From a virus (taxonomy: Duplodnaviria; Heunggongvirae; Uroviricota; Caudoviricetes): DNA of 31,496 nucleotides. The notes beneath the pieces were generated by a model. That model was not told the origin of the DNA. It searched no databases and was given only the letters and a program-made list of their open reading frames with translations. The stretch lies in IMG/VR virus record IMGVR_UViG_643348547_000005, positions 1 through 31,496 of that record; one strand, written 5' to 3'. Numbering within the stretch: the stretch's first letter is position 1; the number at the start of each line of letters is the position of its first letter. The position numbers and the translations under genes are program-made. This document shows, one piece after another, positions 3,045-5,314 of the stretch.

Positions 3045-3700
3045 GTGTGCCCGGAGTTCAGGGCGGGCATGGATGCTTAAATGAACCGCGAGTCTGTCTG
3101 GAATATTGAACCGGTAACTCACGATGAGAAACCCAACAATCCCACCGGGTGTGACGGTGGAGAACCTGAGCGGCAGTGACCTGCGGCATGCCCGCAGGGT
3201 GATGTAACCCGCTGACAACGGGGATTGAGGCGAGATCACTAAGCCGAGATGATCCTCAAGGTTAAGTACTGAAAGGCTGAAGAACATGAACCCGTTAATC
3301 CGCCTCTGTGGGTTGAAAACGTCACCACGGCCTACGTGATCTGACAGGCCGTGCAGGAGGAACTGGCAGTGATACGTAAGCACTGCCGGTCGAAGGTGTT
3401 TTGACATGTATGCGAAACACCGGGGCAGCAGCGTCTATCACGCTTGCGTTGCTGACTTCTGCCAACTTGCGGCAAGCAAGGATAAAGAGTGCGACGGGCA
3501 GCCTCCTCAGTATGCCTGAGTCCAGGCAGGTAAACCGGGGAAGGTCAGCGACGGATGTTAAGGGGGCATGGCTCCGATGACGCGCTGGCTGGCGGAGCTT
3601 CCGTAGTAGTCCGCGATGGGGAAAGCCCATTACATGGCGAAGGGAAGCAGTTTGAATGTGTTTGCGACGTGAATTAACTGACCTAACGAGGTGAAGACCT

Positions 3701-5224
3701 TTGATAATCAGCGAAATGCAACGCAAGCTTGCCACATGGGCAGCCACCGATCCGTCCCTACGGATTCAACGGCTGCTGCGTCTAATAACACAACCAGAAT
3801 GGCTGGCTGAAGCGGCGCGGATCACGCTTTCATCAAAGGGGGCCCATACCCCCGGCGTTGATGGCGTGAACAAAACAATGCTACAGGCCAGACTGGCTGT
3901 TGAGCTGCAAATCCTCAGGGATGAATTACTCTCAGGCCACTACCAGCCCTTGCCCGCCAGACGGGTTTACATCCCTAAAAGCAACGGCAAACTGCGACCA
4001 CTGGGTATCCCCGCGTTGCGGGATCGTATTGTTCAGCGGGCCATGCTGATGGCGATGGAGCCGATATGGGAGAGTGATTTTCATACGCTCTCATATGGCT
4101 TCCGGCCTGAGCGCAGTGTCCACCACGCGATCCGCACGGTGAAATTACAGCTCACAGACTGCGGTGAAACCCGGGGACGCTGGGTGATTGAAGGCGACCT
4201 GTCCAGTTACTTCGACACCGTACATCATCGACTGCTGATGAAGGCTGTACGCCGCAGGATCAGTGACGCACGTTTCATGACTCTGCTGTGGAAAACCATC
4301 AAGGCGGGACATATCGATGTCGGTCTCTTTCGGGCGGCCAGTGAAGGTGTGCCACAGGGCGGTGTTATATCGCCGCTATTATCGAACATCATGCTGAATG
4401 AGTTCGATCAATACCTGCATGAGCGCTACCTGAGCGGGAAAGCCAGAAAAGATCGGTGGTACTGGAATAACAGTATCCAACGGGGCCGAAGTACGGCGGT
4501 CAGAGAAAACTGGCAGTGGAAACCCGCGGTGGCGTACTGCCGCTATGCCGATGATTTTGTCCTCATCGTCAAAGGCACCAAAGCACAGGCGGAAGCCATC
4601 AGGGAGGAGTGTCGGGGTGTGCTCGAAGGCAGTCTGAAACTCAGGCTGAACATGGATAAGACTAAAATCACCCATGTTAATGACGGCTTTATCTTTCTGG
4701 GGCACAGGATCATTCGCAAACGCAGTCGTTATGGCGAGATGCGAGTGGTCTCAACGATCCCGCAGGAGAAAGCCAGAAACTTCGCCGCATCGCTGACAGC
4801 ACTGTTATCAGGCAACTACAGTGAAAGCAAAGTCGATATGGCTGAACAACTCAACCGAAAACTGAAAGGCTGGGCCATGTTCTATCAGTTCGTTGATTTT
4901 AAGGCCAAAGTCTTCAGTTATATCGACCGTGTCGTGTTCTGGAAGCTGGCTCACTGGCTGGCCCGCAAATACCGTACAGGTATCGCTTCCCTGATGAGGT
5001 GGTGGTGTAAATCACCGAAACCGGGTCAGAGCAAAACGTGGGTTTTATTTGGTAAAACCAATCACGGCAAGCTCAGCGGCGAAATACTGTACCGGTTGGT
5101 GGGGCAAGGCAAGAAGCTGTTCCGCTGGCGGCTACCCGAAGGTAATCCCTATCTGAGGACGGAGACCAGAAACACGTATACATCGCGCTTTACAGAAGTG
5201 GCAATGGCGTTCGCCAGCATTTAA
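3701..5224 (+). CDS. group II intron-encoded protein (reverse transcriptase / maturase)
   Basis: 507 aa; RT motifs including the catalytic YADDFV (…[13 protein letters not shown]…) and upstream [15 protein letters not shown] / [15 protein letters not shown] blocks; C-terminal maturase-like region; lies inside intron domain IV. Confidence 0.9.
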   Translation: MIISEMQRKLATWAATDPSLRIQRLLRLITQPEWLAEAARITLSSKGAHTPGVDGVNKTMLQARLAVELQILRDELLSGHYQPLPARRVYIPKSNGKLRPLGIPALRDRIVQRAMLMAMEPIWESDFHTLSYGFRPERSVHHAIRTVKLQLTDCGETRGRWVIEGDLSSYFDTVHHRLLMKAVRRRISDARFMTLLWKTIKAGHIDVGLFRAASEGVPQGGVISPLLSNIMLNEFDQYLHERYLSGKARKDRWYWNNSIQRGRSTAVRENWQWKPAVAYCRYADDFVLIVKGTKAQAEAIREECRGVLEGSLKLRLNMDKTKITHVNDGFIFLGHRIIRKRSRYGEMRVVSTIPQEKARNFAASLTALLSGNYSESKVDMAEQLNRKLKGWAMFYQFVDFKAKVFSYIDRVVFWKLAHWLARKYRTGIASLMRWWCKSPKPGQSKTWVLFGKTNHGKLSGEILYRLVGQGKKLFRWRLPEGNPYLRTETRNTYTSRFTEVAMAFASI

Positions 5225-5229
5225 ATGGA

Positions 5230-5263
5230 GAGCCGGATGCGCTGAAAGGTGCACGTCCGGTTC
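5230..5263 (+). ncRNA. group II intron domain V (catalytic hairpin)
   Basis: 34 nt GAGCCGGATGCGCTGAAAGGTGCACGTCCGGTTC forms the conserved DV stem-loop with GAAA tetraloop and 5' AGC triad, directly after the IEP stop. Confidence 0.8.
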
Positions 5264-5314
5264 GGGGAGGAGAGGCAGGGAAATAGTCCGACTACGCCCT
5301 GCCTCTTACTCTAC

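Follow-up and report, generated by a model that had tools for sequence, protein, structure and literature searches.

Group II introns of bacterial class A, to which E.c.I4 of Escherichia coli and S.f.I1 are assigned, are among the classes whose intron-encoded protein (IEP) has no endonuclease domain (Toro & Martinez-Abarca 2013, PMC3552965). E.c.I4 is known to insert at specific positions in IS3-like transposase genes, namely those of IS629, IS911, ISEc16, and ISEc31, and the genome of E. coli IAI39 holds 15 copies that diverge by less than 1%, which has been described as a recent, strain-specific proliferation (Leclercq & Cordaux 2012, PMC3522654). Here, we describe a stretch of tailed-phage DNA of 31,496 nucleotides (IMG/VR record IMGVR_UViG_643348547_000005, positions 1 to 31,496; hereafter the window), in which a 2270-bp insert at 3045..5314 (+) interrupts orfB, the second reading frame of an IS629-type insertion sequence (IS). 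There is little room for doubt that this insert is a full-length and apparently functional copy of the endonuclease-less class A intron E.c.I4, lying in sense orientation with respect to the interrupted gene. The finding as such is already known, since both the intron and its IS629 site have been described.

The insert is a group II intron with exact boundaries and not a chance resemblance. Together with it, the IS629-type element occupies 2250..5829 (3580 bp); once it is removed, 1310 bp are left. The joined exons of 1310 nt give one-piece matches at 100% identity to uninterrupted elements in many E. coli genomes, and in the comparison with the uninterrupted element of E. coli 504239 (NZ_CP025859.1 1300186..1301495) all 1310 of 1310 positions are identical. 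With a slash marking the junction, the ligated sequence reads ...TTTACTTACG/TCAGCACATGG (or, with a longer left context, ...GATTTTACTTACG/TCAGCACATGG...), whereby a split G/TC valine codon is rejoined. At both junctions, the two adjoining bases are unlike each other, so that no other placement of the boundary is possible, not even one displaced by 1 nt. The insertion point comes after the first base of this Val codon, which follows a conserved D-F-T-Y motif, and the greater part of the region hit by the rve (DDE integrase core) models lies downstream of it; the restored orfB reads continuously across the junction and through this DDE domain. The termini of the insert, GTGTG at the 5' end (GUGUG at 3045..3049 in the RNA) and CTAC at the 3' end (CUAC at 5311..5314), agree with those expected of group II introns (5' GUGYG, 3' AY). 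An earlier note, made from the sequence of the window without database searches, had delimited the 2270-bp insert at precisely these positions and with these ends, and had proposed that its excision would leave 1310 bp and rejoin the split Val codon; the alignment with the intron-less element bears out each of these points.

The host element shows the features of IS629, that is, a length of 1310 bp, terminal inverted repeats (imperfect, TGAACCGCCCCGGG...), orfA and orfB connected by a -1 frameshift, and the DDE (rve) domain. Its name is based on the PGAP label "IS3-like element IS629 family transposase" carried by the corresponding element of isolate AF57, and the term "IS629-type" is used here so as to leave the name of the isoform general.

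At its 3' end, the ribozyme is recognized by the Rfam model Intron_gpII (RF00029), which comprises domains V and VI and matches 5228..5314 with 64.9 bits (gathering score 40; E = 8.5e-11). Both domains together fold with -48.2 kcal/mol (z = -5.5), and none of 200 shuffled sequences is as stable. The bulged A at 5308, the branch-point candidate, is present in the minimum-free-energy fold of domain VI as well as in the centroid fold. For the 5' portion, relatives were gathered via their IEP, and a consensus fold was derived from 34 diverse 5' parts that are 60–93% identical to this intron. Besides domains I to III, the consensus yields the 5' part of domain IV and the DIVa hairpin; the closing stem of domain IV is outside the model, because the 3' strand of this stem is located where the open reading frame (ORF) ends. 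The structure comprises 145 pairs, 94 of which show changes on both sides with pairing kept. Paired cells amount to 97.4%, compared with 36–42% when the partners are slid by 1–3 columns, and the covariation score is 0.528 versus about 0.09 in the control; none of 500 shuffles attains any of the observed measures. The canonical 34-nt domain V and the domain VI-like helix of the earlier note are hence backed by both the Rfam match and the fold, and domains I to IV, on whose foldability that note had made its reading depend, are foldable with covariation support over the parts named above. The group II D1–D4 families of Rfam do not hit 3030..3730, also with the threshold relaxed to E <= 1, and Rfam is without any D1–D4 model that recognizes this class of introns.

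Within domain I, the segment 3304..3326 (CUCUGUGGGUUGAAAACGUCACC) is nearly invariant across the class, and UAUGG is found in many relatives. It is reminiscent of an 11-nt tetraloop receptor, of which it would form one half, and the GAAA loop of domain V may dock here.

The IEP matches the RVT_1 (E = 1.5e-34) and GIIM (E = 1.3e-10) domains, and a lenient Pfam search of its C-terminal 92 residues (E <= 10) retrieved neither an HNH nor any other endonuclease domain, in line with the reverse transcriptase (RT) and maturase regions without a recognizable HNH domain that had been read from the sequence before. An alternative start at TTG 3701 would extend the protein to 507 aa; both lengths are used in public protein clusters, and the commonest of them have the sequence of this IEP or one that is almost the same. 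A conserved hairpin at 3688..3702 bears the ribosome-binding site of the IEP, GAGG.

The identity of the intron as E.c.I4 was established by indirect comparison, through a catalogued fragment in E. coli K-12 and through the published coordinates for IAI39. The K-12 gene ykfC corresponds to intron positions 1..1764 at 99.7% identity, and a 1764-bp fragment in prophage CP4-6 of MG1655 is listed as E.c.I4-tr1 (Leclercq & Cordaux 2012, PMC3522654). In K-12 BW25113 (267902..269665), ykfC is truncated by IS5, and the 5' exon in front of it is a fragment of a further IS3-family element, cut by IS30. For IAI39 (NC_011750), E.c.I4-14 has been placed at 1558821-1561090 (+) and E.c.I4-15 at 1584588-1586857 (-) (PMC3522654 supplement). 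The two intron copies of the window, which start at 3045 and 28812, have the same length of 2270 bp, the same strands, and the same spacing of 25,767 bp. Judged from the published intron coordinates, the window very probably corresponds to about 1,555,777..1,587,272 of E. coli IAI39, and copy 1 appears to be the catalogued E.c.I4-14. The intron is widespread in the species: it is present in 2668 of 5426 complete E. coli genomes, mostly at an identity of at least 99%, on chromosomes as well as plasmids, and the majority of the 3207 matching E. coli records carry copies at this level of identity. The features of both copies and of their exons are collected in Table 1.

Table 1. Positions of the intron copies, their domains, and the flanking IS parts in the window.
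Feature	Position	Strand	Remarks
IS629-type 5' part (5' exon of copy 1)	2250..3044	+	Left inverted repeat, orfA, slippery region, start of orfB
orfA	2304..2630	+	108 aa; not interrupted by the intron
A-rich slippery region and ALIL frameshift pseudoknot	near 2620; 2585..2701	+	Rfam
orfB, 5' part	from 2627	+	
Group II intron E.c.I4, copy 1 (bacterial class A)	3045..5314	+	2270 nt
Ribozyme domain I	3045..3540 (intron 1..496)	+	Folded as consensus of 34 relatives; almost every helix with compensatory changes
Hairpin A, candidate a for EBS1 (exon-binding site 1)	3365..3387	+	Loop CGUAAG at 3375..3380 against the last 6 nt of the exon, CUUACG; 6/6 Watson–Crick
Hairpin B, candidate b for EBS1	3395..3421	+	Loop GACAUGUAUGCG with UGUAUG at 3407..3412
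Ribozyme domain II	3543..3590 (intron 499..546)	+	Consensus fold
Ribozyme domain III	3597..3648 (intron 553..604)	+	Consensus fold
IEP (ltrA), inside domain IV	3716..5224	+	502 aa from ATG; RT and maturase, intact YADD
Domain V	5230..5263	+	34 nt, GAGCCGGAUGCGCUGAAAGGUGCACGUCCGGUUC; AGC triad at positions 2–4, GAAA tetraloop
Domain VI helix	5266..5311	+	Single bulged A 5308, branch-point candidate, 7 nt from the 3' splice site
IS629-type 3' part (3' exon of copy 1)	5315..5829	+	Remainder of orfB (DDE/rve domain), right inverted repeat
ISEc31-like IS3-family 3' part (3' exon of copy 2)	28325..28811	-	Adjoins phage gene FI
E.c.I4, copy 2, inverted	28812..31081	-	100% identical to copy 1; matches published E.c.I4-15
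IS629 5' part (5' exon of copy 2)	31082..31496	-	Ends at the edge of the window

Three points have to be weighed against a functional E.c.I4 that homes to this target. For EBS1, two candidates were found (loops A and B), neither of which is clearly ahead, and no convincing EBS2 was found in the intron. No target-site duplication surrounds the IS of copy 1, whose flanks are TTC (2247..2249) and CTG (5830..5832). Finally, no splicing or mobility experiment on E.c.I4 was found in the accessible literature.

The target itself is well defined. In E. coli, the insertion site is constant, after base 1 of the codon immediately downstream of D-(I/F)-T-Y, with a 3' exon that begins with TC, and the identical insertion point is used in IS629, ISEc31, ISEc15, and the K-12 element. 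Loop A, which pairs perfectly with the exon present here, has two mismatches with the targets other than IS629. The UGUAUG of loop B can pair with positions -1, -2, -3, -4, and -6 of all known targets, mostly via wobbles. Hairpins A and B stand on a common covarying stem in all members of the class, and both loops are of an N-GUA-NG-like type that is complementary to the exon sequence CNUAYN. When the own exon of each intron of the class was compared with shuffled exons (500 shuffles), the match was reached by 49 of the shuffles for loop A and by 4 for loop B, while none reached it for the better of the two loops.

Two further motifs were considered and rejected. UGUGGGU (intron 263..269) came out on top of an unbiased pairing search over all targets as a candidate for EBS1; being near-invariant in the class, with the UAUGG of many members recalling half of a tetraloop receptor, it is a structural motif and not a specificity element. 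GAGAUCA (intron 188..194), tried as EBS2, pairs with the IS629 exon only and not with the other targets. A column-by-column analysis of the complementarity between exon and intron gave no strong signal, the best z being about 3.3 at implausible positions.

The window holds a second, inverted intron copy that had gone unmentioned in the earlier note and is also detected by the Rfam group II model (28812..28898, -). Positions 31496..28810 (-) of the window correspond to positions 381..3067 of the copy 1 element with 100% identity over 2687 bp, which comprise the IS629 5' part, the whole intron, and 2 nt. Beyond this point, the 3' exon codes for the C-terminal part of a different IS3-family transposase and shares about 95% identity with elements that carry the annotation ISEc31. 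Since strain MS 21-1 has an intron at the same place beside FI with both exons ISEc31-like, copy 2 can be recognized as an IS629/ISEc31 chimera joined at the intron, which is most simply explained by homologous recombination between intron copies. In the published catalogue, E.c.I4-15 lies in the same prophage as E.c.I4-14, and its host IS is given as a chimeric IS629/ISEc31 (PMC3522654 Table S2). The adjoining gene FI (window 27978..28340) ends differently from its counterpart in MS 21-1, where 136 bp separate the end of the IS from the remaining FI; as these 136 bp are missing from the window, the C-terminus of FI has been altered by the IS junction.

Recombination of this kind bears on how copy 1 came to its present position. 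Somewhat short of an even chance is given to the arrival of the IS629::E.c.I4 unit as a whole, by homologous recombination, gene conversion, or transposition with a transposase acting in trans or produced after splicing, without any retrohoming at this locus; such an origin would compete with the reading given above on history only and not on the identity of the element. It would account for the 3-bp duplication missing at the IS ends, from which it follows that the unit of IS and intron went through rearrangement and that the intron need not have retrohomed here. In isolate AF57, the left flank is the same and the IS::intron unit is 99.93% identical, but to the right of it comes the opposite end of the prophage (pin', ydfK, ydfJ). 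With this different flank and the prophage interior gone, the right end of the IS marks, in one lineage or more, the site of a rearrangement or a deletion. The chimeric copy 2 shows recombination across intron copies in this very window, and tandems of IS and intron longer than 3 kb have been discussed as recombination substrates (Leclercq & Cordaux, PMC3522654). On the other hand, retrohoming into a resident IS is documented behavior of E.c.I4, with events noted in the same study (PMC3522654 Table S2), and an uninterrupted IS629-type copy is likewise without an obvious duplication, which makes the missing duplication weak evidence.

The surroundings of copy 1 bear marks of repeated IS activity. 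The gene of a 3'–5' exonuclease beside the IS (1658..2200, -) is truncated. In strain E2, this gene continues for 213 bp more before an intron-less IS629-type element, behind which lie fragments of IS30 and IS600. The examined stretch of E2 does not contain the right flank of copy 1. This part of the prophage has clearly accumulated several insertion sequences, and the locus has been rearranged by their activity. An inversion between the two inverted intron copies was also considered, but there is no sign of it, as the gene order is the normal one of a lambdoid prophage: int, xis, and exo are on the minus strand, and the genes from replication through the head are on the plus strand. Its Rfam RNAs, int and xis beside rspB, and the lambda-like head genes identify the window as a Qin-like lambdoid prophage at the rspB–ydfJ site. 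The Rfam matches in question are a sok antitoxin RNA and two cspA-type thermoregulator leaders at 9444..9615, 15645..16037, and 18547..18932.

For the full-length E.c.I4 proposed here, splicing in vivo, mobility, and the mode of priming are inferred largely from general knowledge of group II introns. The mRNA of IS629 orfAB would carry the intron, and the IEP translated from it would assist the folding of the ribozyme. The 2'-OH of the bulged A 5308 would then attack the 5' splice site, the lariat would be freed, and ligation of the exons to ...UAC-G/UC-AGC... would restore orfB, the expected spliced product reading ...TTACGTCAGC.... After splicing, a -1 frameshift at the A-rich site near 2620, aided by the ALIL pseudoknot, would lead to the OrfAB transposase. 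The particle of lariat and IEP would reverse-splice into unoccupied IS3-family targets. Given an IEP without an endonuclease, reverse transcription would presumably be primed by the nascent strands of replication forks, a mode of priming that has been shown for other introns of this kind. That the element is probably active is supported by its intact ORF, by the 100% identity of its two copies, and by the recent proliferation reported for IAI39.

A consequence of this arrangement concerns the host element. The unspliced RNA codes for OrfA (108 aa) together with either an OrfB truncated to 160 aa or a truncated OrfAB, both of which end 21 codons into the intron with most of the rve domain missing. 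On these grounds, it is sound to expect that the IS629 transposase of copy 1 would be made only after splicing of the intron. The dependence holds for its own OrfAB only: OrfA is left untouched by the intron, and many intact IS629 copies are present elsewhere in the host genome.

The same coding capacity has a bearing on a possible role of the intron in restraining IS629, in that inefficient splicing would limit the transposase and lower the transposition of the occupied copy. Such a role is rather unlikely, although the possibility that introns repress the mobile elements in which they reside has been raised (PMC7306698) and the unspliced RNA, as described, yields OrfA and an OrfB of 160 aa without most of the rve/DDE domain; the N-terminal OrfAB or OrfB fragment might in addition serve as an inhibitor. 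However, the argument is purely inferential, and it is compatible with a functional E.c.I4 and hence not a true alternative to it. That copy 1 is a dead relic, which has kept its sequence but lost splicing and mobility and has merely inactivated one IS629 copy, is highly improbable: some catalogued E.c.I4 copies do have disrupted ORFs (PMC3522654) and loop A is mismatched with several targets that the intron occupies, but the IEP is full length (502 aa) with YADD and matches the commonest clusters, every ribozyme helix is intact, the two copies of the window are 100% identical, most copies in E. coli records are at least 99% identical, and the proliferation in IAI39 is recent (PMC3522654).

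Introns resembling E.c.I4 extend far beyond E. coli. IEP clusters at 68–92% identity, with about 502–508 aa and both the RVT_1 and GIIM domains, were found in many Gammaproteobacteria and beyond, and a scan of one genome per species gave 493 loci. Many genera harbor relatives whose IEP is 66–93% identical and whose ribozyme shows the same covariation, among them Marinobacter, Pseudomonas, Pectobacterium, Photobacterium, Legionella, Endozoicomonas, Sodalis, and some Alphaproteobacteria; their provisional assignment to class A is based on how similar their IEPs are and on the ribozyme structure that they have in common. Nearly all of them are inserted at one and the same nucleotide of an IS3-family transposase gene. 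As many as 43 of 50 distinct 5' exons end with GAY-NTN-ASN-TWY-N, which translates to ...W..D(I/V/F/L)(T/S)Y, a motif of IS3-family transposases. Class A was described in 2013 as three nearly identical members (PMC3552965) and was deemed too rare for analysis in the literature of 2020. Its breadth and uniform target may thus be under-reported in the accessible literature, and the recurrence of the D-I-T-Y codon site in IS3-family transposase genes across many genera is a modest new point. A tentative view, for which the chances are on the low side, is that class A is no small peculiarity of Escherichia and Shigella but an old specialized parasite of one IS3-transposase motif, which perhaps reads the variable codon positions via two wobble-rich N-GUA-NG loops.

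For E. coli, nothing reported here is new, and the forward-looking point is the apparent breadth of class A together with the apparent uniformity of its target outside the Enterobacteriaceae. There are nevertheless practical implications for annotation. Pairs of pseudogenes labeled "IS3 family transposase, incomplete" on either side of ltrA should be read as one IS629 split by a spliceable intron, and ykfC of K-12 as a fragment of E.c.I4. From the biological point of view, the locus is a textbook case of a retroelement sheltering in a DNA transposon, and copy 2 draws attention to the 3.6-kb units of IS and intron as recombination substrates by which IS elements and prophages are reshuffled.

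Among the known systems, E.c.I4 and its Shigella flexneri counterpart S.f.I1 are the closest: the length of 2270 bp, the target in IS3-family orfB, and the endonuclease-less IEP are the same, and nothing of substance distinguishes E.c.I4 from the intron of copy 1. RmInt1 of Sinorhizobium meliloti is likewise an endonuclease-less group II intron inside an IS transposase gene, in this case that of ISRm2011-2, and it spreads by retrohoming into further copies of its IS. It differs from E.c.I4 in the class of its IEP (D versus A), in its RNA subclass, and in both the family of the IS and the target sequence. IStrons also tie a self-splicing RNA to a DNA transposon (PMC4227781); in their case, however, a group I ribozyme is fused to the IS that carries it, whereas E.c.I4 is an independently mobile group II retroelement that interrupts the transposase gene of its host IS.

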